Numbered from the stretch's first letter, positions 1 to 23,316 are shown. The stretch is DNA of 64,000 nt from an uncultured Gammaproteobacteria bacterium (GCA_964571295.1 CAZNAO010000001.1:3749-67748); one strand, 5' to 3'. Translations and numbers: made by a program. The notes: generated by a model from the sequence alone, not told the origin.

Positions 1-198
1 ACCAAATCAGTCACTCCACACACCCTTCGACACTCTTATGCCACTGATTTGCTCCAAAACGGGGCCGACATACGCAGCGTACAGTCCATGCTCGGACATG
101 CTTCAATTACGACGACCCAGATCTATACGCATATTACTGACCGGGAATTGCTTAATATACATAAAAAATTTCATGATAAAAAACGAAAGAATGATTGA
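1..198 (+). CDS. tyrosine recombinase (XerC/XerD/phage-integrase family), C-terminal fragment; 5' end lies outside the window
   Basis: Frame-1 translation from nt 1 reads ...[46 protein letters not shown]..., the conserved C-terminal catalytic region (HxxR...LGH...Y) of tyrosine recombinases. Stop TGA at 196-198. It is absent from the ORF track because it has no in-window start. Confidence 0.7.
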
Positions 199-283
199 CA
201 AAAAGAATCAAAAGTCGTACAGTGGAAAGCCGAAAGTCCGATTTTGACTTTATGTTACCACTTTCCCGACTTTTGACTCACAT

Positions 284-355
284 GAGCCCATAGTTCAATG
301 GATAGAACACTAGCCTTCTAAGCTGGATATGCAGGTTCGATTCCTGCTGGGCTCA
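284..355 (+). tRNA. tRNA-Arg (anticodon TCT)
   Basis: Cloverleaf folded by hand: acceptor GAGCCCA/TGGGCTC, D-stem GTTC/GAAC, anticodon stem CTAGC/GCTGG with loop CTTCTAA, T-arm GCAGG-TTCGATT-CCTGC, discriminator A. No CCA is encoded. Confidence 0.85.
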
Positions 356-362
356 CGCTAAA

Positions 363-391
363 CCCTGCACCGCTCTGGCGCAGGGTTTTTT
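363..391 (+). terminator. rho-independent terminator after tRNA-Arg
   Basis: CCCTGC...GCAGGG stem followed by TTTTTT. Confidence 0.55.
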
Positions 392-436
392 GACAAAAGA
401 AACTATATCCTGTAATTTCCCCAGTAAGGAGGTTTT

Positions 437-742
437 ATGAAAAAAAAGAAGAAGCCCACTCTCTACTGGTGTGCTCAGTGCGAACACCGGGAAACACCTA
501 CGGTCGGTGAGAAATGGTTTTTTCTCACCATAAAGAAAGAGTTGTGCTGCCCACGATGTCATGCAGATTCTTTCTACATCTTCGAAGACGAACCGTACGC
601 ATGCGTAATATGCGGCACCCCTTCTCCCTCGCGGGATGTCGCTCGATCCAGGAATGGTTCACCTTGCACGTATCGAAAATCCGGCAAGTGCCCCGGAGTA
701 TTTCGTCCCAAAAAACCTCGCACACCCTCATCTCTCCGATAA
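437..742 (+). CDS. hypothetical small Cys-rich (zinc-ribbon-like) protein
   Basis: ATG preceded by a strong SD (AAGGAGG, 426-432). The protein has CxxC...CCPRC...CVIC motifs and a Lys-rich N-terminus. No recognisable family. Confidence 0.5.
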   Translation: MKKKKKPTLYWCAQCEHRETPTVGEKWFFLTIKKELCCPRCHADSFYIFEDEPYACVICGTPSPSRDVARSRNGSPCTYRKSGKCPGVFRPKKPRTPSSLR

Positions 743-906
743 TCGCACGTCGTGGGAGCAATGAAGCAAGCCACCTCGACGTCATAAGTTTTGTATCCGA
801 CATACAAAGCTTATGACGGGTGACTTGCTTTTTGTTTACTCTTGCAATAATTCCCCTTTTACGCAATACTACTGATAACACACACTTATTCATTAATCAT
901 TATTAT

Positions 907-1635
907 ATGTGGGTGCTCGCGATCGTTATTGCTTTTATCCTACTGATCAGTATTCGCCAGGTGAATCAGTATGAGCGTGGAGTAAAGTTTCAACTTGGTA
1001 AGTTTACCAAATTGATTGAACCCGGCTGGAGATTGGTCGTACCAATTTTCCAAAGCATGCAAAAAGTAGATATCCGCACCAAGGCAGTAGATGTGCCATT
1101 TCAGGAAGCAATTACTAAAGATAATGTATCCGCAAAAATCAATGCCGTTATTTATTACCGGGTGATCGATGCTGGAAAAGCAGTGCTGGAAGTAGAAAAT
1201 TTCTGGTTTGCCGTATCGCAACTCGCCCAGACTACTATGCGTAATGTGATTGGACAGCTCGAGCTTGACGAGCTCCTTGCACGCCGGGAAGAGGCTGCAA
1301 AGAAAATCCGGGAAATCATCGATGTTGCGACTGATGTCTGGGGAATCAAGGTTGAAACCGTAGAATTGAAAGATATCACCCTCCCTGACGATATGCAGCG
1401 CGTTATTGCAAAACAAGCAGAAGCTGAGCGTGAGAAGCGGTCGGTTATCATCAAAGCGGAAGGCGAAATCGCGGCTGCAGAGAATATTGCACAGGCCGCA
1501 CGCATGCTTTCCGATGCTCCAGGAGCACTCCACCTCCGCACCCTGTCTACTATCAATGATGTAAGCTCTGACCAATCCAATACGATTATCTTCGCCGTAC
1601 CGCTTGAAGTACTCAGGTCATTTGAGAAAAAATAA
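907..1635 (+). CDS. SPFH/band-7 (stomatin/QmcA-like) membrane protein
   Basis: The track ORF 820..1635 starts with GTG; the in-frame ATG at 907 gives an N-terminal TM segment (MWVLAIVIAFILLI). The product then follows the stomatin pattern (...KAVDVPFQEAITKDNV...VIGQLELDELLARREE...WGIKVETVELKDITLP...AEAEREKRSVIIKAEGE...). Confidence 0.85.
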   Translation: MWVLAIVIAFILLISIRQVNQYERGVKFQLGKFTKLIEPGWRLVVPIFQSMQKVDIRTKAVDVPFQEAITKDNVSAKINAVIYYRVIDAGKAVLEVENFWFAVSQLAQTTMRNVIGQLELDELLARREEAAKKIREIIDVATDVWGIKVETVELKDITLPDDMQRVIAKQAEAEREKRSVIIKAEGEIAAAENIAQAARMLSDAPGALHLRTLSTINDVSSDQSNTIIFAVPLEVLRSFEKK

Positions 1636-1653
1636 TAGCCCGCAATCTCACAA

Positions 1654-1727
1654 CGACACACGACTCACGTAACACGACCAGTACCGCTATCCTTGTGTCG
1701 TGCCATGCGCTCTCGTGTGTCGTTTTT
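1654..1727 (+). terminator. long hairpin plus T-run downstream of the stomatin gene
   Basis: CGACACACGA (1654-1663) pairs with TCGTGTGTCG (1713-1722), followed by TTTTT. Confidence 0.4.
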
Positions 1728-1736
1728 GATTTATGA

Positions 1737-1765
1737 TTGACAAAAAGCCTAAAAATGTATATACT
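1737..1765 (+). promoter_or_regulatory. sigma70-like promoter for tRNA-His
   Basis: TTGACA (1737-1742), a 17-nt spacer, then TATACT (1760-1765), about 40 nt upstream of the tRNA. Confidence 0.5.
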
Positions 1766-1803
1766 CGACTTTACAAATTAAGGTTCTCAGAGGTAAATCG
1801 AGG

Positions 1804-1875
1804 GGTGGCTATGGTGTAGTGGTAGCACAGGAGATTGTGGCTCTCCTAGTACGGGTTCAATTCCCGTTAGTCACC
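1804..1875 (+). tRNA. tRNA-His (anticodon GTG) with the extra 5' G(-1)
   Basis: Acceptor GTGGCTA/TAGTCAC, D-stem GTGT/GCAC, anticodon stem GGAGA/TCTCC with loop TTGTGGC, T-arm ACGGG-TTCAATT-CCCGT, discriminator C. G1804 would pair with C73 as the His-specific G-1. Confidence 0.85.
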
Positions 1876-1895
1876 CCTTGGTGTATCTCTTCTAT

Positions 1896-1920
1896 AAAAA
1901 AGCCTGAATAGGGCTTTTTT
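1896..1920 (+). terminator. rho-independent terminator after tRNA-His
   Basis: AGCC-tgaatag-GGCT hairpin flanked by an A-run and TTTTTT. Confidence 0.55.
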
Positions 1921-1989
1921 GCTTATAACCGCTTTCATTTTCACCCTTCCCGTGCTACCATACTTGGTATACCCACTATCTGATATCTT

Positions 1990-2406
1990 ATGAAATTTTC
2001 TACCCGCATTTTTCTTTTAATGCTCATTCTACTTGTTAGCGGATTTGGCTGCACCTCTCGCACCCCTGACACCCCCACTGAACCTACTGCAATGTTCTAC
2101 CCTGATTCATTCGACCCTACAATCCTGATCGGACGTTGGCATACTGAACTTGGAGACGGAGGAGGAATTGGTGGATACCGTGATTATACCTTCTACTCTG
2201 ACGGGACTTTTGCAGTCGAAGGTTACCCTGCATGGAATGAATATGGTACCTATGAAGTAACTGGATATGACAACAATCTAGTCACCGTCAGCTTCATAGG
2301 AACAACAGGTGAACAAGCGAGTGCGTACCAGGCGGTTCTCCAATTCGAACCAAATGGTACAGAATTTAATTCACCCACTCTTGGGAACTACACTCGCGCC
2401 GAGTAA
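1990..2406 (+). CDS. hypothetical secreted lipoprotein
   Basis: Signal peptide MKFSTRIFLLMLILLVSGFGC with lipobox-like SGFGC; the same lipobox recurs in the SBP at 9211. No family recognised. Confidence 0.55.
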   Translation: MKFSTRIFLLMLILLVSGFGCTSRTPDTPTEPTAMFYPDSFDPTILIGRWHTELGDGGGIGGYRDYTFYSDGTFAVEGYPAWNEYGTYEVTGYDNNLVTVSFIGTTGEQASAYQAVLQFEPNGTEFNSPTLGNYTRAE

Positions 2407-2439
2407 TTAGACCTTCTTCGACCATTGTTCGAGCGTCCT

Positions 2440-3561
2440 ATGTCTCACCTCAATCGACTACTTATTCTTTCTCTTTCTACTGGAGGTGGGCATATACAAG
2501 CTGCACGCGCACTTGAAAAGACTGTAGCGCGCGATTTTCCCCACATTGTCTGTCGGCACATTGATGTAGCTGATTTTATTACCCCTCTATTCAAAACTAC
2601 TACGATCGGAGGATACAGCTTCCTCATTTCACATTTACCACGTGTCTGGAAATCTCTATTTAAGCTTACCGACAATACACGTATCATGTCGGCATATCGC
2701 ACGCTCACCAACTATCTCAAAAAATTAAATTCATTCGATTTTTTACACGAAGTCGAAGCTTTTCGTCCGGATCACATTATTTGCACCCATTTCCTACCTG
2801 CGGAAATACTTGCCCATGCTCAAAAAAAGCAAATGAATAAAATTCCCCTTACTGAAATCATCACTGACTATGGAGTACATCCTGCATGGGTGATCGATGG
2901 CATTGACACCTATATCGTTGCGACACCTTCCATGAAACAATACTTAACAGACTCCTTTGCCATTCCTTCTTCAGCCATTCAAACTTTTGGTATACCCATC
3001 GACCCTGCATTTCAAAATTCGGAAGATCCCGTACATCTCAAATCTTCATATGGATTTTCTCCTACCAACCCACTTATTCTAGTTTTGGCAGGCGGGAGCG
3101 GATTAATCGATATAGTAGCCGTACTTGAACGGCTTTTCTCACATATCGCTTCTCCTGTAACGATCATTGCGGTTGCGGGAAACAATGAAGTTCTCCATAG
3201 ACGTATCACCAAGCTTACTCCTCCTTCATATATTACTTATCGTACCTACGGTTGGACTGACCGTATTCCTGAATTTATGCGTATGGCCTCGGTAGTCGTA
3301 AGTAAACCTGGGGGACTTACCACCACGGAATGTATGTCCCTTGGAGTACCCTTGATCGCAATTAACCCGATCCCTGGACAGGAGGAATTTAATGTTGGCT
3401 TCCTTTCAGAGGCCGGAAGAGGTGCATATGCACCAACCATTGAGGATATCTGTCCACTTCTCGATCGATATCTCTCAACAGACTATGTACCAAAAGACCG
3501 TGTTTCTTCACGGTCTGCTCACCAGATTATAGAATTTCTCGCTTCTCAGCCATTATCATAG
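2440..3561 (+). CDS. GT28-family glycosyltransferase (MGDG-synthase/UgtP-like diacylglycerol glycosyltransferase)
   Basis: Track ORF 2425 starts with TTG; the in-frame ATG is at 2440. N-terminal LILSLSTGGGHIQAARAL and C-terminal KPGGLTTTECMSLGVPLI...PGQEEFN are hallmarks of MurG/MGDG-synthase GT28 enzymes. Confidence 0.8.
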   Translation: MSHLNRLLILSLSTGGGHIQAARALEKTVARDFPHIVCRHIDVADFITPLFKTTTIGGYSFLISHLPRVWKSLFKLTDNTRIMSAYRTLTNYLKKLNSFDFLHEVEAFRPDHIICTHFLPAEILAHAQKKQMNKIPLTEIITDYGVHPAWVIDGIDTYIVATPSMKQYLTDSFAIPSSAIQTFGIPIDPAFQNSEDPVHLKSSYGFSPTNPLILVLAGGSGLIDIVAVLERLFSHIASPVTIIAVAGNNEVLHRRITKLTPPSYITYRTYGWTDRIPEFMRMASVVVSKPGGLTTTECMSLGVPLIAINPIPGQEEFNVGFLSEAGRGAYAPTIEDICPLLDRYLSTDYVPKDRVSSRSAHQIIEFLASQPLS

Positions 3562-4013
3562 AGATTGGGATCGTTGGGCGGAATATATGTGTCCGGATCT
3601 TGCCCTGGGGTCATCGGATTTTGTAGGCTGCTGTAGAGCCCGCTGTACACCGCATACACGATACTATATGCTCCCAAAATGATGACCAGTCCGATCACGC
3701 TATAGAGTAATATCTTTTTACCCCCTCCCATCTTTTCTTCATTACCGTTTGAGGTCATAATCATGAATCCCCCTGCTATCGCAAAGACTACGGCGATCGT
3801 ACCAATCACGCCCAGGGAAATTTTTATCAAGCTTGCCGCAATAACTCGAGGATCTCTTGATTCTCCTAAATTCGCACCTTTTTGTCCGGCAAATCCCTGG
3901 AGTTGCTGATTGATGTCTGCTTGAAGTCCCTGCGCATACGCATAGGAACTAATACCCAGTCCTAAAGCAATCACCACTGCACCTATCCATATTTTTTTTG
4001 TACGCCACGTCAT
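3546..4013 (-). CDS. TrbC/VirB2-type (T4SS-pilin-like) small membrane protein, paralog 1 of 11
   Basis: Track ORF starts with TTG at 4043; the ATG at 4013 sits 13 nt after the upstream gene's stop. It has a signal peptide, then ISLGVIGTIAVVFAIAGGFMIMTSNGNEEKMGGGKKILLYSVIGLVIILGAYSIV (two TM helices around a short charged loop), and a Pro/Asp-rich tail. Confidence 0.7.
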   Translation of the reverse strand: MTWRTKKIWIGAVVIALGLGISSYAYAQGLQADINQQLQGFAGQKGANLGESRDPRVIAASLIKISLGVIGTIAVVFAIAGGFMIMTSNGNEEKMGGGKKILLYSVIGLVIILGAYSIVYAVYSGLYSSLQNPMTPGQDPDTYIPPNDPNLYDNG

Positions 4014-4026
4014 ATTCTTACTCTCA

Positions 4027-4431
4027 TTACTTAAATCCTCCAACCTCAGAAGCGATTCTGGTTAACACAAAATTCGTAATGCTATACGCGCATAAAATGA
4101 TGATAAGACCGATTATCGCGTACTGAATGATTTTCTTAGCACCCCCCACCTTCTCATCATTCCCTGCCGCAGTAAACATGATAAAACCTGCATAAAAGAC
4201 TAGTAGTAAAAATATCGTTCCAAGAAGGGAAAGCACTATCTTTACCCCTTCGGCCACGGCAATTCTAGGATCCTTGGCTTCAGCGCCATATCCTGCCGCA
4301 CCAGACCCTGCATTCAATTGTCCCAATACATCCGGGCCCGTACCGATTACTTCTCGTACCGGTAGTGCACTGCCCAGACACACCAACCCGATCATCATCC
4401 CCACCACTGCACTGTTCCATTTTTTTTTCAT
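4027..4431 (-). CDS. TrbC/VirB2-type pilin-like membrane protein, paralog 2
   Basis: Signal peptide, then KIVLSLLGTIFLLLVFYAGFIMFTAAGNDEKVGGAKKIIQYAIIGLIIILCAYSITNFV. ATG confirmed at 4431. Confidence 0.75.
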   Translation of the reverse strand: MKKKWNSAVVGMMIGLVCLGSALPVREVIGTGPDVLGQLNAGSGAAGYGAEAKDPRIAVAEGVKIVLSLLGTIFLLLVFYAGFIMFTAAGNDEKVGGAKKIIQYAIIGLIIILCAYSITNFVLTRIASEVGGFK

Positions 4432-4440
4432 ATGATCGGA

Positions 4441-4839
4441 TTATGGTGAGGTACTTGTAGCAGTAAGCGCACCCTCCATCACTCGTGTTACCACAAAATT
4501 GGTAATACTATATGCCATGAGCAATATGATAAGACCAATAATTGACGTACTGATAATACTTTTTGCCTTCGTTACCGCCTCATCGTTCCCCGCCGCAGTC
4601 ATCCAGAGATATCCTGCGTAAATAATAAGTACCGTAAAAATAACCCCCAGAAGTGACAACAGAATCCTTATTGCTCGCCCCACATTCTCAGCAAATGTCG
4701 TCTCGGTTGCCGCAGCATATCCTGCCCGTCCCGCTGCCTGATCTACTCTTTCAGTACCCAAATCAATTGCGTAGACTCCCGGAACAAATACGAACACAAG
4801 CATGAGGGAGAGAAGGAACGTTTTGAGACGGAAATACAT
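4441..4839 (-). CDS. TrbC/VirB2-type pilin-like membrane protein, paralog 3
   Basis: Signal peptide, then IRILLSLLGVIFTVLIIYAGYLWMTAAGNDEAVTKAKSIISTSIIGLIILLMAYSITNFV. Confidence 0.75.
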   Translation of the reverse strand: MYFRLKTFLLSLMLVFVFVPGVYAIDLGTERVDQAAGRAGYAAATETTFAENVGRAIRILLSLLGVIFTVLIIYAGYLWMTAAGNDEAVTKAKSIISTSIIGLIILLMAYSITNFVVTRVMEGALTATSTSP

Positions 4840-4850
4840 AGTATTGAATT

Positions 4851-5237
4851 TTAATTCCCAAACTGTCGAGTTACGAATATTGTAATTGCGTATGCAGAAA
4901 CCACAATAAACAATCCCATGATTGAGGATTTAAAAATTTCTTTCGCTTTTGAAACCATTTCATCATTTCCTCGAGCAGTCATCCAGAGATATCCTGCGTA
5001 GACGGTAAGAATAAGAAATACCAACCCAATCATGCTTAATGCTACTTTGATTATATTTCCCACAATCACGCTGATATCACTTTCGACATTTCCACCGATC
5101 CCTTGTTGCACATTTTTGAGATTATCGTCCGCACTCCCCAATCCTTGTCCCCAGACATGAAAAGGGATCATACCCCACGTAAGCATTACCACGAAGAGAA
5201 GATGGTAGACTTTTTTACCTGTTTTCGATACTTGCAT
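4851..5237 (-). CDS. TrbC/VirB2-type pilin-like membrane protein, paralog 4
   Basis: Upstream Met codons of the track ORF overlap the neighbouring gene, so the start is taken at the ATG at 5237 (MQVSKTGKK...). Core: VALSMIGLVFLILTVYAGYLWMTARGNDEMVSKAKEIFKSSIMGLFIVVSAYAITIFV. Confidence 0.7.
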   Translation of the reverse strand: MQVSKTGKKVYHLLFVVMLTWGMIPFHVWGQGLGSADDNLKNVQQGIGGNVESDISVIVGNIIKVALSMIGLVFLILTVYAGYLWMTARGNDEMVSKAKEIFKSSIMGLFIVVSAYAITIFVTRQFGN

Positions 5238-5259
5238 ACGATAATCTGAAATTATGTTT

Positions 5260-5652
5260 TTATAGTCCGACAGCTCCGGTAACAAATGTCGAAATTGCAA
5301 ATCCCGAAACCGCAATCAAGAGCCCGATAATTGCAGCAATAATGGTTTTTTTCGCCTCGGCAATCTTTTCTTCCTCACCACGTGCGAGAAACCATATCAC
5401 TCCGGCATAGAGCATGAGCAGGAAAAATATGAGACCGGTGATTCCAAAAAACCACTGTGCCACTTCTCCCACATACGTTGCTACTTCGTTTTTTGGAAGT
5501 CCAGTTGGTGCTATGGCCTGATTCAGCATTCCCGGAGCATCTCCGATTTTCTTTGCCGCATTCGCGATTGTACTATGCATGCACGCTACCAACAGTCCAG
5601 TACCTAGTCCTGTATAAATACCCCACTGTTTCTTTGTTCTTTTGGAGAACAT
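5260..5652 (-). CDS. TrbC/VirB2-type pilin-like membrane protein, paralog 5
   Basis: Start taken at ATG 5652 (MFSKRTKK...), one nt after the upstream TAG stop. Core: FFGITGLIFFLLMLYAGVIWFLARGEEEKIAEAKKTIIAAIIGLLIAVSGFAISTFV. Confidence 0.7.
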   Translation of the reverse strand: MFSKRTKKQWGIYTGLGTGLLVACMHSTIANAAKKIGDAPGMLNQAIAPTGLPKNEVATYVGEVAQWFFGITGLIFFLLMLYAGVIWFLARGEEEKIAEAKKTIIAAIIGLLIAVSGFAISTFVTGAVGL

Positions 5653-5653
5653 A

Positions 5654-6286
5654 CTAAGAAGGTTGCCATCTACACTTTGTATCTCCATTGCAACCATCTT
5701 CATCATTATTCCACATTTCACATTTATGTCCTGAACTTGTTACCGCAACACAGGTGATTCCGTTTGCACCACCTGCCATACAATAACCCACACGATCATC
5801 GTCATTGGTGGTACTACAAATCACTCCTCCCTGCCCCTGAATTTGGGTACAATATTCTTGATCGACTACACAACGACCTTGCGCAGTCGGAGTTGGCGTT
5901 GGTGTCGTATTTCCTCCACCACCACCTGCATTTCCCCCCAGCTGGAATACGAAATTGGTCAAGGCATACGCTCCCATGACGATAATAATACCGATCGTCG
6001 CCCCGATAATCGTATTGAGTGCCTTTCCCGTCTGCTCACTGTTGCCTCGCGCGGTCATCCAGAGGATTCCTCCGTATAGTACTAACACAAAAAATAATAC
6101 CGAAATCATAGAAAGCAATGTTCCTATGATGTTTCCTGCAATGGTTGGGACACTATTGCCATAACCAGTGAGACCCGCGGCACCCGCCGTCTCATCCAAC
6201 CCGAAATTCGCTGCCATGACGGTCGGTACCATCACCATTGACACTGCAATACATAAGCCGGTAATAAATGGTGCGTATTTGCGCAT
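5654..6286 (-). CDS. TrbC/VirB2-type pilin-like protein with a C-terminal Gly/Thr/Pro linker and Cys-rich domain, paralog 6
   Basis: Signal peptide, the conserved core (LLSMISVLFFVLVLYGGILWMTARGNSEQTGKALNTIIGATIGIIIVMGAYALTNFV), then GGNAGGGGGNTTPTPTPTAQG and an ~70-aa module with 9 Cys. Confidence 0.7.
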   Translation of the reverse strand: MRKYAPFITGLCIAVSMVMVPTVMAANFGLDETAGAAGLTGYGNSVPTIAGNIIGTLLSMISVLFFVLVLYGGILWMTARGNSEQTGKALNTIIGATIGIIIVMGAYALTNFVFQLGGNAGGGGGNTTPTPTPTAQGRCVVDQEYCTQIQGQGGVICSTTNDDDRVGYCMAGGANGITCVAVTSSGHKCEMWNNDEDGCNGDTKCRWQPS

Positions 6287-6316
6287 ACGATAGAAAAAAT
6301 TATTATTCTATTTACG

Positions 6317-6733
6317 TTATCCAAAACTGGGTCCACACGAACCAGTTGTAGCGCATAGTGCCCGTATGATGTAGCTTGTAATCGCGTATGATGTGAAAAT
6401 AATGATAAGCCCGATCACCGCTGAAATCAACATTTTTTTTGCACTCCCTACTTTCTCATCATTCCCCCCTGCGGTCATCCAGGTGAAACCTGCATAGAGC
6501 ACGATACATACCGCAATAAGCCCAAGAAACGTGAGGACAAAATTGATAATTCTAATAGCTAAAATTCGAGGATCCTCTTTTGTCAACCCCGTACCTTCCC
6601 CACAATCGACCCCCAATATGTCATTTGGATTACTGCATCCCTGCGCGTACACCTGACTTCCCCATAGCAGTGCGAGCCCAAAAAACGCTGCGACTACCAG
6701 TAATGCACGAGTTTTTTGTATGTTCATATGCAT
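6317..6733 (-). CDS. TrbC/VirB2-type pilin-like membrane protein, paralog 7
   Basis: The N-terminal mature region has Cys pairs (QGCSNPNDILGVDCGEG). Core: VLTFLGLIAVCIVLYAGFTWMTAGGNDEKVGSAKKMLISAVIGLIIIFTSYAITSYI. Confidence 0.75.
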   Translation of the reverse strand: MHMNIQKTRALLVVAAFFGLALLWGSQVYAQGCSNPNDILGVDCGEGTGLTKEDPRILAIRIINFVLTFLGLIAVCIVLYAGFTWMTAGGNDEKVGSAKKMLISAVIGLIIIFTSYAITSYIIRALCATTGSCGPSFG

Positions 6734-6840
6734 GGATTGAATTACTCACAGTTTTCCCGGCTTATTGTAACATACTAAGTCAGGAAAACTGTGATACCAT
6801 ATACTGTTTGGCATATGGTTCACAATATTTGTTCTGAAAC

Positions 6841-7275
6841 TTACGGTGTAGTACCTTCGATAGCTGCACCGATATTTGAGACAAAGAACTGAGCGATTGC
6901 ATATGCAGAGAGAATGATCGCAAGACCAATCACTGATGCAATAATAATCTTCTTTGCTTCGCCTACCGCTTCGTCATTGCCACCTGCGGTCATCCATTTG
7001 AAACCTCCCCAGAGGATCAAAATCACTGCGATCAAACCAAGGAACGTCAACGCGAGATTGATCAATCTAATGATGACGATTCGTGCATCGGTTTCACCAG
7101 TAGTTACATTGATATTTTGTGCAACCGGATCCAAACCATAGTCCACGCCAGGATCTATCTGTGCGCTCGTTGTTGCCGGTGAGAGAGAGAACACGCTTAC
7201 CAAAGCAGCGACGCCTAATAGGAGCGCATTTCGATGCTTCAGTAATTTTGCTACTGTGTTATTCACACTTCTCAC
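6841..7275 (-). CDS. TrbC/VirB2-type pilin-like membrane protein, paralog 8
   Basis: GTG start with an AAAGGGGG SD-like element just upstream. Core: LALTFLGLIAVILILWGGFKWMTAGGNDEAVGEAKKIIIASVIGLAIILSAYAIAQFF. Confidence 0.7.
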   Translation of the reverse strand: MRSVNNTVAKLLKHRNALLLGVAALVSVFSLSPATTSAQIDPGVDYGLDPVAQNINVTTGETDARIVIIRLINLALTFLGLIAVILILWGGFKWMTAGGNDEAVGEAKKIIIASVIGLAIILSAYAIAQFFVSNIGAAIEGTTP

Positions 7276-7339
7276 CCCCTTTCAATGTATGATATTTTTT
7301 CATACGCGTCACGTATTTTACGTGATGTGTTATTTACAC

Positions 7340-7987
7340 TTAAGGTGCAGCCTGTAAAGTCTGCAAAATCAACGTAAGTATAGCATAGCTGCTGAAAACC
7401 ACAATAATACCTATCCCAGCCCACAACATTGCCTGCATTCCTTTTGCAATTTTTTCTGAATTTCCCGCGCTCGTAAGCCACTGAAATCCTCCATAGACAA
7501 ATACCACAAACGCAATCGTACCAATTATTCCTACCACCACTTTTACCGTATTACCGAGAATTATTTTGATATCAGTCTCACCAAGCGGATTTACCAACGA
7601 CACACAGTCTTGTCCAGTCGCACAGCTGCTCGGCGTGTTGACGCTTTCATTGCTTTCCCGCTGTATCTGAATCTGTCTATACTCCTCGCACGACTGTGGC
7701 GAAGGAAATTTTTGTCCTGCAGGACATGAAGCAATGTCGGTCTCTGACTGCGAACAAAGCTTAGTAGTTGTGATATAGCAACTTCCTATAGCACCAGGGA
7801 GGACGAGATTTGGATCTTGGCACGCTCCTTCTCCAGAACCGTCATCTGCACAAACCAAACCCTCAAGACATTGTTCATCTATTTCACACGGTTCACCATT
7901 ACCGGCCTGTGCCTTAACAGGCAGCGACTGTCCTACCCCCATTATTACGATGAGTAATGCGATACTGTTTTTTAGTACACTTTTCAT
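7340..7987 (-). CDS. TrbC/VirB2-type pilin-like protein with an N-terminal Cys-rich ectodomain, paralog 9
   Basis: Signal peptide, then an ~120-aa segment with about 12 Cys (PCEIDEQCLEGLVCADD..GACQDP...), then the conserved core VVGIIGTIAFVVFVYGGFQWLTSAGNSEKIAKGMQAMLWAGIGIIVVFSSYAIL. Confidence 0.7.
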   Translation of the reverse strand: MKSVLKNSIALLIVIMGVGQSLPVKAQAGNGEPCEIDEQCLEGLVCADDGSGEGACQDPNLVLPGAIGSCYITTTKLCSQSETDIASCPAGQKFPSPQSCEEYRQIQIQRESNESVNTPSSCATGQDCVSLVNPLGETDIKIILGNTVKVVVGIIGTIAFVVFVYGGFQWLTSAGNSEKIAKGMQAMLWAGIGIIVVFSSYAILTLILQTLQAAP

Positions 7988-7993
7988 ATGATT

Positions 7994-9202
7994 TTAAAAT
8001 GGAAGTAGACTCGACTGAATTCCAATCGCTTTTACCACAAATCCAATAAGGATATACGCAGAAAAAGTAATAATAAGTCCCAAGGTTGCCGCTACCAAGA
8101 TTTGCTTCCCCTGTCCCACTTTTTCCGCATTTCCAAATGACATGATCATGGTGATCCCGCCATACACGAAGAAGACAAAAGCGAGTCCTGCAATCACGGA
8201 GAAAAGCCACTCTGCCACCTTTACCCCCAACTCAACCAGGTCTTCTACATTTCGACATGACCCATCCCATGCACAGTCCGGAAGTGGACCATTGTAATTT
8301 GCAGGTTTTTGATGTGTACTTGATATCCACGCATCTATTGCCTCGGAAGTATTCACCTGCACGATCCTGTCTACACATTTTTCATTATCCCCTATCTTAC
8401 AGTGCAGCACTTTAGTACATGTATTTGGATCCAACTCACTACATTTGGTTGTATTATCTGACTTAGAGATGCATTTTGCACCTGTCTGCCACCACAGACA
8501 CGCCGCATCCGCATTACACTGCTCTACATTTGCTCCGTATTTACTTTGACAAGCTGTATTGGTCGGCGGATAATCATTGTTACCCGCTATTTTCATGAAA
8601 TAGACAAACACTTCATCCGGATTCTGGTCCAATTCACAAAACCAGTATCTGGTACGAAATAACTCGTCATCTCCCTCAATTGCGCTTTCTTGTGCAAAAT
8701 GATATTTGGTTACCAAATCATCTGGCTCATTGTCAGGATATGCACCGCTATTACAGCCGCGATCTGCGCTATTATTCCCTTCAAAAATCCACTCACCATT
8801 TTCTTCACCCGGACTCATTCTGAATTGTCTGATCACATCCTCATCACCCCATTCTGGACTTATGATTTTATTTCCCGTGACATTGACCCCATTGATGAGA
8901 TCTGTCCACTCCGCCCATGTTTTATCTTTTGCCACGGTTACACAAAAAAATTCACCTCGGTTATCTTTGGGATGGTGTGTCTGATAATCAAAATCCTCAT
9001 TAGTCTGATGACTTCCATTAAATTTTTCTCCATTTGGGCGAGTTATCTTAAAAATGGCAATTTGTTGATTTTCATTCGGTGCTACCGGACATTTGAATCC
9101 TTTTAAATCCACAGGATATTCAGCTGCTACGGCACTTCCTGTCCATGCACCAAATGCGAGAAGTAGTGCGATAATATATATGTTGACTTTTCTATATCTC
9201 AT
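7994..9202 (-). CDS. large TrbC/VirB2-type pilin-like fusion: unknown ~300-aa N-terminal ectodomain plus C-terminal pilin core, paralog 10
   Basis: Signal peptide and a long Cys-containing extracellular region, with C-terminal core WLFSVIAGLAFVFFVYGGITMIMSFGNAEKVGQGKQILVAATLGLIITFSAYILIGFV. The N-terminal domain is paralogous to that of 10695..11738 (YPVDLKGFKCPVAPNENQQIAIFK vs YTVNLGDFKCPQAPENNRKIAIFK). Confidence 0.7.
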   Translation of the reverse strand: MRYRKVNIYIIALLLAFGAWTGSAVAAEYPVDLKGFKCPVAPNENQQIAIFKITRPNGEKFNGSHQTNEDFDYQTHHPKDNRGEFFCVTVAKDKTWAEWTDLINGVNVTGNKIISPEWGDEDVIRQFRMSPGEENGEWIFEGNNSADRGCNSGAYPDNEPDDLVTKYHFAQESAIEGDDELFRTRYWFCELDQNPDEVFVYFMKIAGNNDYPPTNTACQSKYGANVEQCNADAACLWWQTGAKCISKSDNTTKCSELDPNTCTKVLHCKIGDNEKCVDRIVQVNTSEAIDAWISSTHQKPANYNGPLPDCAWDGSCRNVEDLVELGVKVAEWLFSVIAGLAFVFFVYGGITMIMSFGNAEKVGQGKQILVAATLGLIITFSAYILIGFVVKAIGIQSSLLPF

Positions 9203-9210
9203 ATATCAAA

Positions 9211-10596
9211 TCAATAGGTTTGCTGAATTTTTGCCGCCGTATTTATGATTACCGACTTATCTTTTCTCAGTGTTTCTTCCGGAGTATTTCCCTGTCTCAG
9301 AAACTCGGTTATCATATCTTTCAATGCAGTGGTCGCCACATCCACTTCTCGTCCTCGATACCAATTTTCTGCAAAGAGTGCCTGTGTCGCAAATGGACCC
9401 AGTGTTTCATTCTCCTGTTGTGCCGTAATCTGTTCCCGATACGGACTTGGCCTGAATGTGGCAGTCACGTATTGCTGCACTTTTTCTTTCGAGGTAATAA
9501 AATTCACGAAGCCCCATGCCTCATTCTGATTCTGGGATTTTTTCACGACTGATTCCACCCAATAATTGGCAACGTTTACCGGTGTTTCCGGATTGAGTTG
9601 TGGAATAGTTGCAATCTTGATCGCGAGCTGTGGAGCGCGCGCTTGCAATCTCGGATAATCATACGCGAATCCAAGGAAAAATGCCGTGCGACCTCTCACG
9701 AATTCGTCAAACGCATTTTGCATACGATCATTCCAGCTATACCGATCTGCGGTCGCTCGTGCGAAACCGGTATAGAAATCGAGCGCTCGGATGGTCGAGT
9801 GTGTCCGACTCTGATCTCGATCAACTCCAGAGGCAAATGCTACCGTATCCCCGTCTGTCACTTTTGACCCACTTTGAAGCATGAGTAGTGCAACAATGTC
9901 TGCAAAATTATCGATATTATTCGATGTGCCCATCGCGACTCCCGATTGGATTATATCGAGCGTAGCACTGAATTTCGTCGTCTGTTGCACCGCACGTACA
10001 AACTCATCCCAGGTCTTTGGAGCTTCCGCAATACCCGAGCGATCAAGAATCGTCTGATTGTAGAACAATGCAAGCGAATCAAGGGCCATCGGAAGGCCGA
10101 AAATACCTTCATTGATAATGATATCTTTTGCGACCGTCTGGACATACTGATTTCGAATGTCACGTTCCCGGGGAAGTGATACCGTATCCACCACCACTTC
10201 CTGCTCTTTGGTATATTGATTCTTGGTTATCAGACGTGGTAATTGTACCGATGCAGGTGCCGCAGCAAGTCTGCTTTCATTCTTCCTAAGCCACCGAACA
10301 TGCATCGATACGATATCCGGACCCACATCATCCGCAAGCGCATTGGTGAACAATGAATCGAATTCTTCATACCGTACTTGTCGAATATTGATCGTTACAT
10401 GCGGATAACGCGCTGAATACTCCACTGCATACGCTCGCAATTGTTCGACATCTCCGTAGACCGTCCAATAATTCAAAGTGATCGGACGGAGTGATGCCCG
10501 CTCTTCCTGATTCAATCCTTTACAACCAAAACCACTGAATATCAAAAGAACACTCAACACTCCCAAGGATAGTAGCGATGTAACTTTTTTCCTCAT
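9211..10596 (-). CDS. ABC-transporter extracellular solute-binding lipoprotein (family-1 SBP, sugar-type)
   Basis: Signal peptide with lipobox LIFSGFGC and a 461-aa periplasmic-binding-protein-like product. It lies between the two large pilin-fusion paralogs. Confidence 0.65.
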   Translation of the reverse strand: MRKKVTSLLSLGVLSVLLIFSGFGCKGLNQEERASLRPITLNYWTVYGDVEQLRAYAVEYSARYPHVTINIRQVRYEEFDSLFTNALADDVGPDIVSMHVRWLRKNESRLAAAPASVQLPRLITKNQYTKEQEVVVDTVSLPRERDIRNQYVQTVAKDIIINEGIFGLPMALDSLALFYNQTILDRSGIAEAPKTWDEFVRAVQQTTKFSATLDIIQSGVAMGTSNNIDNFADIVALLMLQSGSKVTDGDTVAFASGVDRDQSRTHSTIRALDFYTGFARATADRYSWNDRMQNAFDEFVRGRTAFFLGFAYDYPRLQARAPQLAIKIATIPQLNPETPVNVANYWVESVVKKSQNQNEAWGFVNFITSKEKVQQYVTATFRPSPYREQITAQQENETLGPFATQALFAENWYRGREVDVATTALKDMITEFLRQGNTPEETLRKDKSVIINTAAKIQQTY

Positions 10597-10611
10597 AACA
10601 TTCCATCTTAA

Positions 10612-10685
10612 GTCGAAAGTCTGTAAAGTCGAAAGTCTGTAAAGTAATTGGTGTTTTGGTTTATGGACTTTAAGACTTTACGGAC
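10612..10685. repeat. intergenic repeat: perfect tandem 16-mer GTCGAAAGTCTGTAAA x2 (10612-10643) plus the inverted, related GGACTTTAAGACTTTACGGAC (10665-10685)
   Basis: Read directly from the sequence. Related motifs occur at 12634-12694 and 31099-31170. Confidence 0.8.
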
Positions 10686-10694
10686 GTTATAGGC

Positions 10695-11738
10695 TCATTT
10701 AAATATTTCAAATATAAATCCTACCAGTGCGTAACTTGCAAAAATAAGCGCTACCCCCAGGGTCGCCCACACTATCGTATTTTGCGCTTTCGTCTGAGTT
10801 TCCGAATTTCCCCGGGCGGTCATCCACAATACTCCACCATAAATGATCATTATGAGTGCAATGGTACCGATTATCCCAAGCACCCCTCGAATGAGCATTC
10901 CCACAAACTGAGAAAGATCTGTCGTCTGAAGCAGATTCAATCTCCGGGCATATTCGGATAGATTACTTGTTCCACCCGTACTTGAACTCGTATTTCCTCC
11001 TGAATTTGAAGAAGGTGTCGAAGACGCGGAGGGGTCATCTGGCGCAGGATAGTCTTCTTTCTCCGCAATTTTCATAAAATACACAAAAGCCTGTTCAACC
11101 CCATGACCTTCATCACTGGGAATGCCGTAAAAATAAAATCTTACTCGCGGAGCAAGATTTGCCTCCTGCTCCGAAAGAGGTCCACACCCATACAAAAACG
11201 TAGGCAAACATGTTTGGGCAAAATGATACATTACATCGTTATCGTCCGGTTCATCATTGGCATCTGAGGATCCCATCACCTCGTTCCAACCATAACCAGT
11301 TCCGTCTGCTTGTCGTTCATCCTTCCACTCGTCGTCTACATAAAATTGTCTAATCACATCTTCATTTCCCCATTCAGTAGGAACTAGTTTTTGCCCCACA
11401 ATATCAACCCCCTGGGTCAGATCATTCCATGTCGCTGAGTTTCGATTCTTATCTACCGTTATGCAGAAAAATCGCCCGGAGTCGAGTTTCGGCTGATGTT
11501 CTACTGTATTATAATGCTCTGTCTCTTCTCCATCATCATCAAACTCTGTCGCACCATTGGCCACATCCGGGATAACCAATTTGAAAATCGCTATTTTTCT
11601 GTTGTTCTCCGGAGCCTGCGGACATTTAAAATCACCAAGATTGACTGTATACGGCTCTGTTGCGGCCACACTTCCCGTCCACGCACACCACAACATCATG
11701 GTTGCCGCGATATATGAATAAACTGCCGTTTTGGTCAT
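10695..11738 (-). CDS. large TrbC/VirB2-type pilin-like fusion with the shared N-terminal ectodomain, paralog 11
   Basis: Paralog of 7994..9202 across the N-terminal domain (GRFFCITVDKNRNSATWNDLTQGVDIVGQKLVPTEWGNEDVIRQF vs GEFFCVTVAKDKTWAEWTDLINGVNVTGNKIISPEWGDEDVIRQF). Ser/Thr/Gly-rich linker, then core VLGIIGTIALIMIIYGGVLWMTARGNSETQTKAQNTIVWATLGVALIFASYALVGFI. Confidence 0.7.
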   Translation of the reverse strand: MTKTAVYSYIAATMMLWCAWTGSVAATEPYTVNLGDFKCPQAPENNRKIAIFKLVIPDVANGATEFDDDGEETEHYNTVEHQPKLDSGRFFCITVDKNRNSATWNDLTQGVDIVGQKLVPTEWGNEDVIRQFYVDDEWKDERQADGTGYGWNEVMGSSDANDEPDDNDVMYHFAQTCLPTFLYGCGPLSEQEANLAPRVRFYFYGIPSDEGHGVEQAFVYFMKIAEKEDYPAPDDPSASSTPSSNSGGNTSSSTGGTSNLSEYARRLNLLQTTDLSQFVGMLIRGVLGIIGTIALIMIIYGGVLWMTARGNSETQTKAQNTIVWATLGVALIFASYALVGFIFEIFK

Positions 11739-11753
11739 ATGCGGTATTACAAC

Positions 11754-12596
11754 TTATAGTAGGCCTTCCTTTTTTGCAAAATGAATTGCAGTCTTCAATA
11801 ATGCCAGTTTGTTTCCGGTATCAAAATATTCCCCTTCGTATTCGTATGCGAAAAATTTCTTTTTCTTGGCGAGCGTGTGTGCCGCATCTGCAAGCCATAT
11901 TTCCCCATCTTTGCCCGTACCTTGCTCCTGCAAGATATTCCATATGTCCGAGGTCAAAATATAGCGCATCCCTCCCACAATAAGACCATATGGTGACACA
12001 TGTTCTAGAGCAGGTTTTTCTTTGAACTCAGTGACGCGATAGAGCCCGCCACCCAGAGGTTTTCCATACACATTTCCATATTTACGCATTTCCTCTTTGT
12101 TTCCTATTTTTTGCACTCCAATAATTGAAGCTTTTTTCTTGTAAAAGATGTCGAGAAGCTGAGCTATTACCGGAGTTTTCGCATCAATGATGCTATCTCC
12201 ATCTGAAAACGCAAACGGCTCATCGCCTATAAATTCTCTCGCACAAAGAAGCGCATGTCCATTCCCTAGCGGTTCTGGCTGTCTGGTGTAGAAAAATCGC
12301 ACTTTTTTATTTAATTCGATCAATGATTGAACTCGGTCGAGTTTTCCCTGCCGTTCTAGATATGCCTCATAATCAGGATCGCGATCAAAATGATCTTCGA
12401 TAGCACGTTTCTGAGAACTGGTCACAAAAATGATTTCCGTTATGCCGCTCGCCGCCATTTCTTCGACAATATACTGGACGACCGGCTTATCGAGTACTGG
12501 TAACATCTCTTTCGGCATGGCTTTGGTTGCTGGAAGAAAACGAGTTCCAAGCCCCGCGACAGTAATAACACCTTTTTTGACACGAATATTCTTCAT
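11754..12596 (-). CDS. galU: UTP--glucose-1-phosphate uridylyltransferase
   Basis: N-terminal VITVAGLGTRFLPATKAMPKEMLPVLDKPVVQYIVEE is the GalU nucleotide-binding signature. Confidence 0.85.
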   Translation of the reverse strand: MKNIRVKKGVITVAGLGTRFLPATKAMPKEMLPVLDKPVVQYIVEEMAASGITEIIFVTSSQKRAIEDHFDRDPDYEAYLERQGKLDRVQSLIELNKKVRFFYTRQPEPLGNGHALLCAREFIGDEPFAFSDGDSIIDAKTPVIAQLLDIFYKKKASIIGVQKIGNKEEMRKYGNVYGKPLGGGLYRVTEFKEKPALEHVSPYGLIVGGMRYILTSDIWNILQEQGTGKDGEIWLADAAHTLAKKKKFFAYEYEGEYFDTGNKLALLKTAIHFAKKEGLL

Positions 12597-12633
12597 AGAA
12601 ATGAATGTAATGGCGATAGTATAACATACCTTA

Positions 12634-12694
12634 GTCGAAAGTCATAACGTCCACAACGTCTAAAGTTCTGTCTATTGACTTTCTACTTTCGGCA
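12634..12694. repeat. intergenic motif cluster related to the 10612 and 31099 repeats (TAGTCGAAAGTCATAACGTCC ... GACTTTCTACTTTCGGC)
   Basis: Read directly. Shares the GTCGAAAGTC, ATAACGTCC and GACTTTC elements. Confidence 0.6.
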
Positions 12695-14101
12695 CTACTG
12701 TACCTCTTCCCAACTGATTAACTCATAGGTCGACCCTGTCGGAAATCCGGGTGGTGGATAATATTTCAAATTTCCATCATATACGTGATTTGTATAGACA
12801 TATCCTGCCACCACAACTCCTTGCGCAGTTACATATTTCCACCCTCCTCCTCGATAGGAAATCTGAGAACCGAAAAACGTAAGGGAATTTTTGAGTGCAA
12901 GTGATTGCCCCGAATAATTGTAGTTCGGCATGTAAATTTGGCCGGTTTGTGAAAGTGCCGCAGCATTGATTTCAAGATTGTTAGGAGCTTTATAGGGAAT
13001 AATAATATCACGCTGCGTGATGATACCTATCACATCATCACTTGATTTTTGATACTGGAGCAGGTTATTAGGTATAAAGACCTGATAATTACCTGCGATC
13101 GGGAAACTACCCGTACCGATCGTTACTCGACCATTTACTGTCCCTTCAACCCACAAGTTTTCTTCGACGAAAATCACGCCATTTGCAGGTAAAGAAAATG
13201 TGCTATTTGACGCATTACCTGAATTGAGTAAACTTTTTGACTTGATATCATAACAACGTCTACGCCATCGTGAATCATCATAGTCATAGAGGTAAAAACA
13301 ATCGGTCGCCGTGACCCGATATACGGTATATTGCGTATTATTGAATATGATTTGATAGCCCTCATCATTACCGAGTGGAGGGAAATACTTTCCCCCAGTT
13401 TGTGCCGCGGTGCGCAGTTCAGAAAGATCTGCAGAGACTGAGCCAAAATCTGCCGCAGGTACCGGAAACTTCCAATAATATTGTGGTCCGCCGTTTCCCC
13501 ATACACCCGGCTTTACCTGTCCATTGTAGTTGTATGTCGTCTTAGCACTTTTTACCCACGAATCAGTAGTACCATCAAATTTAATTCCACCATTTGACAT
13601 CACTTCTCCAAACACTTGTGTCGTGGCACTAAATGACATATCAGCATTTTCAATAAACGCACTATCCGTAAAAGATGGGAAGCCCAATCGAACACGGAGT
13701 GTGCGGTCACTAATACCATTCAACATGGAACCTTGGGATGCTACGGCGATTACCGATGAATTGGGCAAGGGTGAAGAAATAGTGAGAGCGAATGCGCCGA
13801 TCGTGTTATCGTTCTTATCAGAAAAATCATGTATATACGGACCGGGGGAACCGGTACCATCGGTAAAATCAGAGGTATTGTGAGCCAAATGCCATCGATA
13901 ATAATTAATCCCCGCCTCAGCAATATGAAACGCAGCATCTCTTCGATACACAGTCATCGACGTACGATGCTCGAACAATGCATACGCAAGCAATCCTAAT
14001 ACCATCAATACAAATGCAATTGACCCGAATACCATGACGATAAGGAGGGTAGTTCCTCGACTTCGTCGAGAAAGTCTAAAATTTGAAAGTCGTAACATCA
14101 T
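12695..14101 (-). CDS. PilX-like type IV pilus minor pilin/assembly protein (large, single N-terminal TM)
   Basis: Track ORF begins with TTG at 14116; the ATG is at 14101. N-terminus RSRGTTLLIVMVFGSIAFVLMVLGLLAYAL resembles PilX N-domains, with a large C-terminal extracellular part. Lies in the same operon as the prepilin-like genes upstream. Confidence 0.45.
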   Translation of the reverse strand: MMLRLSNFRLSRRSRGTTLLIVMVFGSIAFVLMVLGLLAYALFEHRTSMTVYRRDAAFHIAEAGINYYRWHLAHNTSDFTDGTGSPGPYIHDFSDKNDNTIGAFALTISSPLPNSSVIAVASQGSMLNGISDRTLRVRLGFPSFTDSAFIENADMSFSATTQVFGEVMSNGGIKFDGTTDSWVKSAKTTYNYNGQVKPGVWGNGGPQYYWKFPVPAADFGSVSADLSELRTAAQTGGKYFPPLGNDEGYQIIFNNTQYTVYRVTATDCFYLYDYDDSRWRRRCYDIKSKSLLNSGNASNSTFSLPANGVIFVEENLWVEGTVNGRVTIGTGSFPIAGNYQVFIPNNLLQYQKSSDDVIGIITQRDIIIPYKAPNNLEINAAALSQTGQIYMPNYNYSGQSLALKNSLTFFGSQISYRGGGWKYVTAQGVVVAGYVYTNHVYDGNLKYYPPPGFPTGSTYELISWEEVQ

Positions 14102-14184
14102 AAAAGTAGCACACAAAATTCAGCCGGATTCATTTCAAAATTTTTGTATATTTTTCCATATATATTGTATCTTACACTTTCGGC

Positions 14185-14802
14185 TTAATTGGTTTTTAAG
14201 TTTCGTATCTGCGTAATTGATTCTACGCGAATTGGCACTGGACTCTTACTCTGATCTTTCTCAATCTGAACCATTACCTTTACCATGCGAATATTCGGAA
14301 TGGTAATCGGTGACACCATGGGCGAGCCGGTTCCTGTATATGATTCAGTAAAATACTGAAACGTATCGATTCCTTTTACTGCATTTTCCACATTGTGTAC
14401 GAGCACCGTTACTTGTTCGGTACCTGTATACGCAAGTGGGTTGCCACTTGGTTTCAAAATTCCGCGCCGAAGTTCAGAGCCTTGTATCCAATAGCGTACA
14501 CGCTCTCGGAGCGAATCCTCATCTATATTCGCATATACCGTGAGTGTCGAGGTGGTCGCAGTTGCAATCGGGTATGAACCCACACTTGAACTTTCTGCAG
14601 TACGAACGACATTCGTGATTTCAGTTACGATACGCCTTGCTTCACGTTGCCCATAAAGCTGATCATCAAGAATTTTCTGATCCTTGAAACTGAGCGCAAT
14701 AAACGTTCCTGCGCCCATCAAAATAATCAAGGTAATCCCGATTACAACCGACACTTCAAGCAGTGACATGCCACGGATGCTGTGTCCAACATAGTATTTC
14801 AT
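14185..14802 (-). CDS. type IV prepilin-like protein (minor pilin candidate)
   Basis: N-terminal RG|MSLLEVSVVIGITLIIL is a class III signal with Glu at +5 and Met in place of Phe at +1. Overlaps the upstream gene by 4 nt. Confidence 0.55.
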   Translation of the reverse strand: MKYYVGHSIRGMSLLEVSVVIGITLIILMGAGTFIALSFKDQKILDDQLYGQREARRIVTEITNVVRTAESSSVGSYPIATATTSTLTVYANIDEDSLRERVRYWIQGSELRRGILKPSGNPLAYTGTEQVTVLVHNVENAVKGIDTFQYFTESYTGTGSPMVSPITIPNIRMVKVMVQIEKDQSKSPVPIRVESITQIRNLKTN

Positions 14803-16565: not shown

Positions 16566-16574
16566 GTATCAACA

Positions 16575-17444: not shown

Positions 17445-17459
17445 ACACTAATTCGTGAA

Positions 17460-23308: not shown

Positions 23309-23316
23309 TATACCCT

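Follow-up and report, generated by a model that had tools for sequence, protein, structure and literature searches.

In a 64,000-nucleotide stretch of DNA (the window) from an assembly labelled uncultured Gammaproteobacteria bacterium (GCA_964571295.1, CAZNAO010000001.1:3749-67748), eleven co-directional minus-strand genes at positions 3546–11738, interrupted only by a gene for a solute-binding protein (SBP), encode membrane proteins that belong to a type IV secretion system (T4SS) pilin family, PF18895. The locus is a VirB2-like pilin array. It belongs to a Patescibacterium of the class ABY1 that is related to Candidatus Magasanikbacteria, and the set of pilins is fixed and anciently diversified. 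We consider it fairly likely that a remote VirB4-type T4SS assembles the products, giving a surface filament or conduit where the host is contacted. The list of open reading frames (ORFs) of the window contained the same eleven paralogs, and the SBP gene at 9211, that had been picked out in the original prediction, made from the DNA before this analysis. The pilin genes are lettered A to K in the order of their transcription; lengths are in amino acids (aa).

Pilin A, 10695–11738, minus strand: 347 aa; signal peptide, β-rich ectodomain of ~240 aa, Ser/Thr/Gly-rich linker and C-terminal two-helix hairpin; PF18895 32.7 bits, TrbC 20.5 bits, NF045849 31.9 bits (below cutoff).
SBP_bac_1 gene, 9211–10596, minus strand: 461 aa, family-1 solute-binding protein with a lipoprotein-like N terminus; SBP_bac_1 77.6 bits.
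Pilin B, 7994–9202, minus strand: 402 aa; signal peptide, β-rich domain (~aa 30–215), membrane-proximal region with 14 Cys (~aa 215–317) and hairpin (318–395); PF18895 30.6 bits.
Pilin C, 7340–7987, minus strand: 215 aa; N-terminal ectodomain of ~107 aa with 10 Cys; PF18895 41.2 bits, TrbC 17.0 bits.
Pilin D, 6841–7275, minus strand: 144 aa, minimal pilin; PF18895 36.9 bits, TrbC 19.0 bits.
Pilin E, 6317–6733, minus strand: 138 aa, minimal pilin; one Cys pair lies in its short N-terminal part, further Cys near the C terminus; PF18895 31.3 bits, TrbC 21.5 bits.
Pilin F, 5654–6286, minus strand: 210 aa; hairpin followed by a Gly/Thr/Pro linker and a C-terminal domain of 91 aa with 8 Cys; PF18895 28.8 bits.
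Pilin G, 5260–5652, minus strand: 130 aa from the ATG at 5652 (longest ORF to 5721); PF18895 40.9 bits.
Pilin H, 4851–5237, minus strand: 128 aa from the ATG at 5237 (longest ORF to 5315); PF18895 34.2 bits.
Pilin I, 4441–4839, minus strand: 132 aa, archetypal minimal member; signal peptide ending in VYA, mature N terminus of ~20 aa, then the hairpin; PF18895 37.5 bits.
Pilin J, 4027–4431, minus strand: 134 aa, minimal pilin; PF18895 33.6 bits.
Pilin K, 3546–4013, minus strand: 155 aa from the ATG at 4013 (longest ORF to 4043); Pro/Asp-rich C-terminal tail; PF18895 28.8 bits, TrbC 22.3 bits.

The starts given for G, H and K (5652, 5237 and 4013) are the ATG codons that match the lengths of orthologs at related loci, which we denote by L numbers (for G, 126–129 aa in L001, L004 and L006; L005_G has 217 aa). 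With these starts, the gaps from galU to K measure 15, 98, 8, 6, 64, 107, 30, 1, 22, 11, 9 and 13 nt, and no genes overlap. The spacing of 1–100 nt proposed earlier therefore needs only a slight extension, to 1–107 nt, while the two stop/start overlaps proposed with it were apparent ones, produced by longest-ORF starts. No clear Shine-Dalgarno-like motif preceded any of the 13 gene starts from galU to K (3546–12596). Promoter-like sites in 3000–18700 were fewer than in shuffled sequences and intergenic terminators were absent there, results that are uninformative on operon structure.

A hidden Markov model (HMM) of the shared C-terminal module (~78 aa) retrieved exactly the eleven ORFs when run against every six-frame ORF of the window with 50 aa or more, with E-values from 1e-34 to 3e-27 and no further window ORF at E ≤ 1; sharing of the module is far beyond chance, as had been proposed. 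All eleven products also reached the Pfam gathering score of PF18895 (28.8–41.2 versus 26.6 bits), which bears out the predicted membership in the T4SS-pilin family. By hydropathy, the C-terminal pair of hydrophobic helices was present in all eleven proteins and a signal-peptide-like N-terminal segment in nine, the segments of G and A falling under the threshold; of the architecture originally proposed, a signal peptide plus two helices, the second element thus holds throughout and the first for nine members. AxA-type cleavage sites are visible in an alignment of 40 family members, as is a loop motif between the helices, [YW][AG]G..WMTA.GN.E...AK, that is kept across hundreds of homologs. Seven minimal members (D, E and G–K) carry 13–48 mature N-terminal residues and comprise ~100 mature residues each. 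The other four (A, B, C and F), here called decorated, bear extra ectodomains of 90–290 aa that are Cys-rich or β-rich; the N-terminal module of C and the C-terminal domain of F contain 10 and 8 Cys residues, respectively, rather than the 12 and 9 first counted.

Beyond PF18895 itself, a family relationship to conjugative pilins is weakly supported. Six of the eleven proteins gave sub-threshold matches to the TrbC/VirB2 family PF04956 (17–22 bits, E 1.6e-4 to 7e-3) in register, over the equivalent region of the profile (positions ~35–98). hhalign placed both helices of a profile built from 40 family sequences, together with the W-M motif and the loop, in register with five annotated VirB2/TrbC proteins (59 columns; probability 33%, P 4.6e-4, values that may be biased by transmembrane composition). 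NF045849, the NCBIfam model of a "pilin-like conjugal transfer protein" from Mycoplasma integrative and conjugative elements (ICEs), was covered over its whole 80 positions at 29.6–31.9 bits, against a cutoff of 40. AlphaFold2 (AF2) models of B and I both contain two long antiparallel helices, at residues 319–354 and 359–393 in B (predicted local distance difference test score, pLDDT, 77.6) and at residues 45–81 and 86–129 in I (pLDDT 82.5). The top PDB match of the B model in Foldseek was the conjugation pilus of Aeropyrum pernix (8dfu), with a TM-score of 0.65 on the target but an E-value of 1.5.

The taxonomic placement follows the homologs of the pilins. All named homologs of B come from Candidatus Magasanikbacteria, and those of I mostly from Magasanikbacteria plus other candidate-phyla-radiation lineages; nearly all of the 447 homologs of I belong to PF18895. 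The loci L007–L012 and many other arrays likewise come from species-representative metagenome-assembled genomes (binchicken or SRP co-assemblies) whose titles read "uncultured Gammaproteobacteria bacterium". These titles are misleading, as the gene content plainly marks the genomes as relatives of Patescibacteria/Magasanikbacteria.

The order of the locus is identical in L001, L004, L005 and L006: type IV pilus minor pilins, galU, a large pilin, the SBP gene, a second large pilin and nine more pilins. In these four genomes (five with the window), the best BLAST matches of the eleven window proteins fell on the positional counterpart in 44 of 44 cases, each outscoring the best window paralog. 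The eleven paralogs are therefore older than these lineages. The closest genome, L007, aligns collinearly with positions 1–11376 of the window at 86% nucleotide identity and has all eleven genes intact, with lengths within 3 aa and protein identities of 80–96%. Relative to L007, the ratio of nonsynonymous to synonymous substitution rates (dN/dS) was 0.04–0.24 for the eleven genes, 0.08–0.14 for ectodomain segments, 0–0.09 for hairpins and 0.013–0.106 for flanking genes; the SBP is 91.8% identical to its L007 ortholog, with a dN/dS of 0.054. The eleven genes are under purifying selection with respect to this nearest relative.

These observations bear on the suggestion, made in the original prediction, that the array is an antigenically variable repertoire. 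On that account, which also covers phase variation, only one paralog or a small number would be active at any time, and recombination would exchange them so that the cell escapes host defences or changes host, an idea put forward for the Bartonella TrwL and Anaplasma VirB2 paralogs. Tandem divergent paralogs are what it leads one to expect, and the window paralogs share on average 27% identity over their full length (maximum 44%) and 36% in the hairpin module (range 23–56%); in addition, the ectodomains of A, B, C and F differ among deeper relatives, and the analogy has been suggested for Patescibacteria (PMC12102498). Against it stand the strict positional orthology in five genomes and the same gene number in L007, where the ectodomains give no diversifying signal, so that the turnover in copy number and ectodomains expected of such a repertoire is not seen between close relatives. 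Moreover, DNA repeats inside the array are at most 101 nt long at 60–85% identity and therefore offer no recombination substrate, and neither an invertible promoter nor a recombinase gene adjoins the array. Positional orthology, purifying selection and the shortness of the repeats together argue against antigenic variation, which we regard as very improbable, and for eleven non-redundant parts.

Arrays of this kind had been held to be undescribed; in fact they have been published. Quinonero-Coronel et al. 2025 (PMC12102498) reported VirB2 arrays of 2–11 genes in 383 Patescibacteria assemblies, an array being defined by tandem genes or by one non-pilin gene between them, with paralog identities of 25% on average and 54% at most, and drew an analogy with the VirB2 paralogs of Bartonella and Anaplasma. 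A "Sec secreted array" has been published for TM7x, and transposon sequencing (Tn-seq; Wang et al. 2023, PMC10633639) showed several predicted pilins encoded in the Southlakia epibionticum T4SS cluster to be essential. According to a 2025 review (PMC12857230), the latter are VirB2-like pilins, six in number, whose structures are conserved although their sequences diverge, and which may build a pilus in a monoderm. With eleven genes, one intervening SBP gene and its short gaps, the present locus falls within the published definition, and it resembles the arrays of PMC12102498 in its PF18895 membership, low paralog identity (mean 27% versus 25%, maximum 44% versus 54%), chromosomal and origin-proximal position and lack of a relaxase. 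Most of the published clusters likewise lack a relaxase, and a role in conjugation was doubted; the proposal that the present array is not a conjugation pilus fits this opinion. That paper does not take up orthology gene by gene, the SBP conserved within the array or the swapping of large ectodomains. The classes richest in arrays there were Microgenomatia and Saccharimonadia, whereas the present array belongs to ABY1, in which related loci reach 12–13 members.

Indeed, arrays are the rule in the ABY1 class. All 86 of the 86 loci from related genomes carry co-directional arrays of 2–13 module genes, with 11 genes in fifteen loci, 12 in five (L013, L019, L034, L037 and L082) and 13 in four (L012, L021, L030 and L036). 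The arrays of 12–13 members exceed the published range of 2–11; genes were counted here when on the same strand with gaps below 2 kb.

In contrast to the published array figure, which refers to arrays near virB4, the present array is not linked to virB4. As originally stated, no VirB4, VirB6, VirB11 or VirD4 was found in the window by a Pfam scan that covered every ORF from 400 aa upwards and the majority of those from 120 aa upwards. To read this absence as independence from a T4SS is not supported, given what is published on ABY1. In that class, virB4 loci lie near comF, recG and radA, and the Magasanikbacteria VirB2-like genes are flagged as not near virB4 (PMC12102498, Table S3); the remote position of ABY1 virB4 explains why the ATPase is absent from view. 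VirB4 was recorded in 2,417 of 3,035 assemblies overall and in 19 of the 22 Magasanikbacteria assemblies considered from Table S1. Four listed assemblies carry arrays analysed here, and VirB4 is recorded for L050, L052 and L084 and not for L025. The linkage of array and VirB4 within the same genome rests on the tables of PMC12102498. In other classes of Patescibacteria, the VirB2-like family lies beside virB4 in 1,135 of 1,948 assemblies; the window array lacks the virB4-cluster location seen there and in S. epibionticum, a common state that fits ABY1.

Drawing on the parallels with VirB2, TraA and CedA1, and with the S. epibionticum pilin array, which is essential, we propose the following mechanism; the remote VirB4 locus is taken from the literature, and we infer polymerisation, T4SS dependence and an adhesive role. 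Each product would be exported by the Sec pathway and, after cleavage of its signal peptide, would form a membrane hairpin whose two termini lie outside and whose conserved loop lies inside. The hairpins would then be pulled out of the membrane by a VirB4-type T4SS of monoderm-like (MPF-FATA-derived) kind, encoded at another place on the chromosome, which would build a surface filament or conduit from them where a host cell is contacted. The minimal members D, E and G–K would make up the shaft, and the decorated members A, B, C and F may show host-binding modules on their predicted outward-facing termini.

The ectodomains of A, B, C and F, some of them lineage-restricted, are swapped between deeper relatives. 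The mature N-terminal parts had been described as essentially unrelated between most copies, to which A and B are an exception, with a common β-rich domain of ~200 aa (36% identity over 203 aa, E 3e-35). The window A and L001_A have hairpins that are 87% identical, yet the ectodomain of the former is of the B type. This ectodomain is absent from all A orthologs (L001 and L004–L006), which carry unrelated Cys-rich ectodomains, those of L001_A and L004_A being related to each other. The loci compared were L001:7284-8522, L004:7389-8555, L005:7248-8606 and L006:7858-8526. The B orthologs of L004 and L005 keep only the Cys-rich membrane-proximal segment, and the C-terminal tails of F orthologs vary from 63 to 272 aa, with 6–32 Cys. 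For the B ectodomain, an informative fold match was not found. An exhaustive search of 1.84 billion representative proteins returned only 19 relatives, nearly all of them pilin fusions of 330–450 aa, with the β-rich part in about six clusters; the B ectodomain is thus lineage-restricted. A protein of 1088 aa (P0150) contains seven tandem copies of the Cys-rich membrane-proximal module of B (query aa 184–270), and this module therefore occurs outside pilin fusions too.

Several results weigh against assembly of these proteins into a filament by a T4SS. None of the eleven reached the gathering score of PF04956 (27.9 bits; best 22.3). Fold searches returned mostly generic helical hairpins at non-significant scores, and the family profile, when run against PDB sequences, found no solved pilin and a single chance match at E 1.1. 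Up to 10 kb on either side of the 86 related arrays, no VirB4-like gene was found; for this survey, ORFs that have a Walker A motif and a length of 450 aa or more formed nine clusters, eight representatives of which were scanned against Pfam, seven being FtsH, PilB, SMC, DEAD helicase, ComM, DnaA and AbiV-like proteins and the eighth, a 616-aa ORF of L019, matching no family. No filament of such proteins has been observed in a Patescibacterium, and Gram-positive-type T4SSs normally lack a pilus (PMC10633639, PMC12857230). Finally, ectodomains of 240–290 aa, such as those on A and B, may be incompatible with the tight helical packing of a pilus.

Some of the same points would suit a different role of the hairpin, that of a membrane anchor only, in which case the array would encode eleven non-polymerising surface proteins (adhesins, receptors or channel accessories), and the small members could be integral parts of a T4SS membrane channel rather than of a pilus. 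T4SSs of monoderms without pili, the lack of an observed pilus for the Patescibacteria T4SS, the non-significant matches to solved pilin structures, the ectodomains of 90–290 aa on four members and the conserved solute-binding lipoprotein inside the array are all in keeping with an anchor. However, seven of the eleven proteins are almost hairpin alone, which is odd for the anchoring of a displayed domain; the loop motif is kept across hundreds of homologs, as contacts between subunits or with lipid would predict; and the relation to VirB2/TrbC runs in register. We therefore judge the anchor to be unlikely, if well worth bearing in mind, and retain assembly by a remote VirB4-type T4SS as the preferred explanation.

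The pattern of exchange among ectodomains invites a more specific idea, which we put forward tentatively and with considerable doubt: the ABY1 array may be a modular display system, in which about seven minimal VirB2-like subunits form a fixed scaffold and are joined by three or four scaffold-fused, lineage-restricted orphan ectodomains that pass between genomes as cassettes. No PrgB-type adhesin has been found for the Patescibacteria T4SS, and the swapped ectodomains could be its "missing" adhesins or determinants of host specificity. The display modules might act with the embedded SBP and the adjacent type IV pilus genes and, in a stronger version, the array may be assembled without VirB4.

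Comparison with characterised systems shows where the present array conforms and where it departs. Like VirB2, TrbC and TraA (PF04956; T-pilus and F-pilus) and the CedA1/Aeropyrum pilins (8dfu), its products combine a signal peptide with a two-helix hairpin whose termini are predicted to face outward, and they share weak in-register sequence similarity with these pilins, 8dfu being also the top, non-significant fold match. Unlike VirB2/TrbC/TraA, they score below the PF04956 gathering score, they are eleven paralogs instead of one major pilin, and some bear ectodomains of 90–290 aa; moreover, the present system has neither an outer membrane nor VirB5. The array of S. epibionticum ML1, which provides the only experimental evidence for such arrays (Tn-seq essentiality), comprises six pilins within a T4SS cluster, whereas the eleven genes described here lie beside type IV pilus genes with no T4SS core gene in 64 kb. 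Bartonella Trw (TrwL) and Anaplasma phagocytophilum likewise have tandem divergent T4SS pilin paralogs in host-dependent bacteria, paralogs that are thought to widen host-surface interactions; those arrays, however, lie within or beside the T4SS operon and are read as recent amplification and variation, while the paralogs described here are ancient, keep their positions and evolve under purifying selection. Mbov_0395/MMCAP2_0565 of Mycoplasma ICEs (NF045849) is similarly a VirB2-like hairpin protein of a monoderm, MPF-FATA-type system, but the window proteins remain under the cutoff of that model, and the Mbov_0395-type gene is single-copy in a mobile conjugative element.

The array is flanked by the following genes:

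galU, 11754–12596, minus strand: TIGR01099 galU, 279 bits; directly upstream of A.
Four type-IV-pilus minor-pilin-like genes, 12695–14116, 14185–14802, 14799–16565 and 16575–17051, minus strand: N_methyl match for 14185–14802 and 14799–16565.
Glycosyltransferase gene, 2425–3561, plus strand: glycolipid (diglucosyl-diacylglycerol/monogalactosyldiacylglycerol, MGDG, type) synthase-like; PF06925 94.8 bits, NF010135 174 bits (below cutoff).

The glycosyltransferase gene is convergent with the array, downstream of K, and has the same position in L001, L004 and L006. It and galU bracket the array, and both positions are kept in these three genomes. Solved conjugative pili contain stoichiometric lipid, and a link of the array to glycolipid supply from the bracketing genes is conceivable, if purely speculative. 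On the opposite strand, at 18.7–22.8 kb, lie genes for PilB, PilC and PilM. The type IV pilus genes noted earlier were recovered in part: PilB, PilC, PilM and prepilin-like genes with N_methyl matches were identified, and PilN and PilO were not confirmed by Pfam. Several genes of this neighbourhood, at 12695–14116 (minus strand), 16575–17051 (minus strand) and 22778–23868 (plus strand), matched no Pfam or NCBIfam family and are assigned by position only; among them are a 473-aa protein with an N-terminal hydrophobic segment and the presumed pilN and pilO. The genes dnaA and dnaN at 43.6–46.4 kb coincide with a sign change in GC skew, which places the window on the chromosome near the origin; the array lies 32–40 kb from dnaA and, by GC skew, is co-oriented with replication. 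Origin proximity has likewise been noted for T4SS genes (PMC12102498). Further away, the plus-strand gene at 55666–58725 encodes 1019 aa; its product has four lamin-tail domains along with one PKD domain and an OB-fold match and is probably a large surface or nuclease-associated protein, unrelated to the array.

This neighbourhood raises the prospect that the eleven proteins serve the type IV pilus as accessory subunits and that PilB, PilC and PilM, instead of a T4SS, handle them. The array is directly downstream of four minor-pilin-like genes on the same strand, with only galU between, the PilB, PilC and PilM genes are 7 kb off, and the synteny is kept in five genomes. Yet PF07963 (N_methyl), the class III signal, matched none of the eleven proteins even at E ≤ 1, and most have ordinary Sec signal peptides with AxA-type sites; in addition, the same family stands beside virB4 in other classes of Patescibacteria (1,135 assemblies; PMC12102498). 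Membership in the type IV pilin family was rejected, the N_methyl motif being absent, and a role as type IV pilus accessories seems highly unlikely to us.

The SBP gene is an orphan, kept between A and B in all five genomes compared. Its conservation inside the array could be taken to mean that the hairpin proteins and the SBP form a nutrient-uptake device unrelated to secretion systems, and some sources name homologs of the pilins "amino acid transporter" or "cytochrome oxidase subunit". Such labels are generic mis-annotations of hydrophobic proteins, however, the curated families matched are pilin families, and no ABC permease or ATPase gene adjoins the SBP gene (9211–10596); we give an uptake device hardly any credence. 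An interpretation of the eleven proteins as ABC-transporter or lipoprotein subunits was likewise rejected, the SBP being the only such protein.

For S. epibionticum, the only Patescibacteria species tested, both the T4SS and the pilin array are essential. The array type was already known, and no new category is opened here, although this lineage supplies an unusually regular example; new are the positional orthology including the SBP, the purifying selection, the survey of 86 loci and the ectodomain swapping. A fixed set of eleven members under purifying selection speaks for paralogs that act as non-redundant parts of a single structure and not as alternatives to one another, and the swapped ectodomains of A, B, C and F, some of them orphans, are obvious candidates for host recognition. 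The locus thereby offers a clean comparative handle, chiefly for the design of experiments in cultivable relatives.

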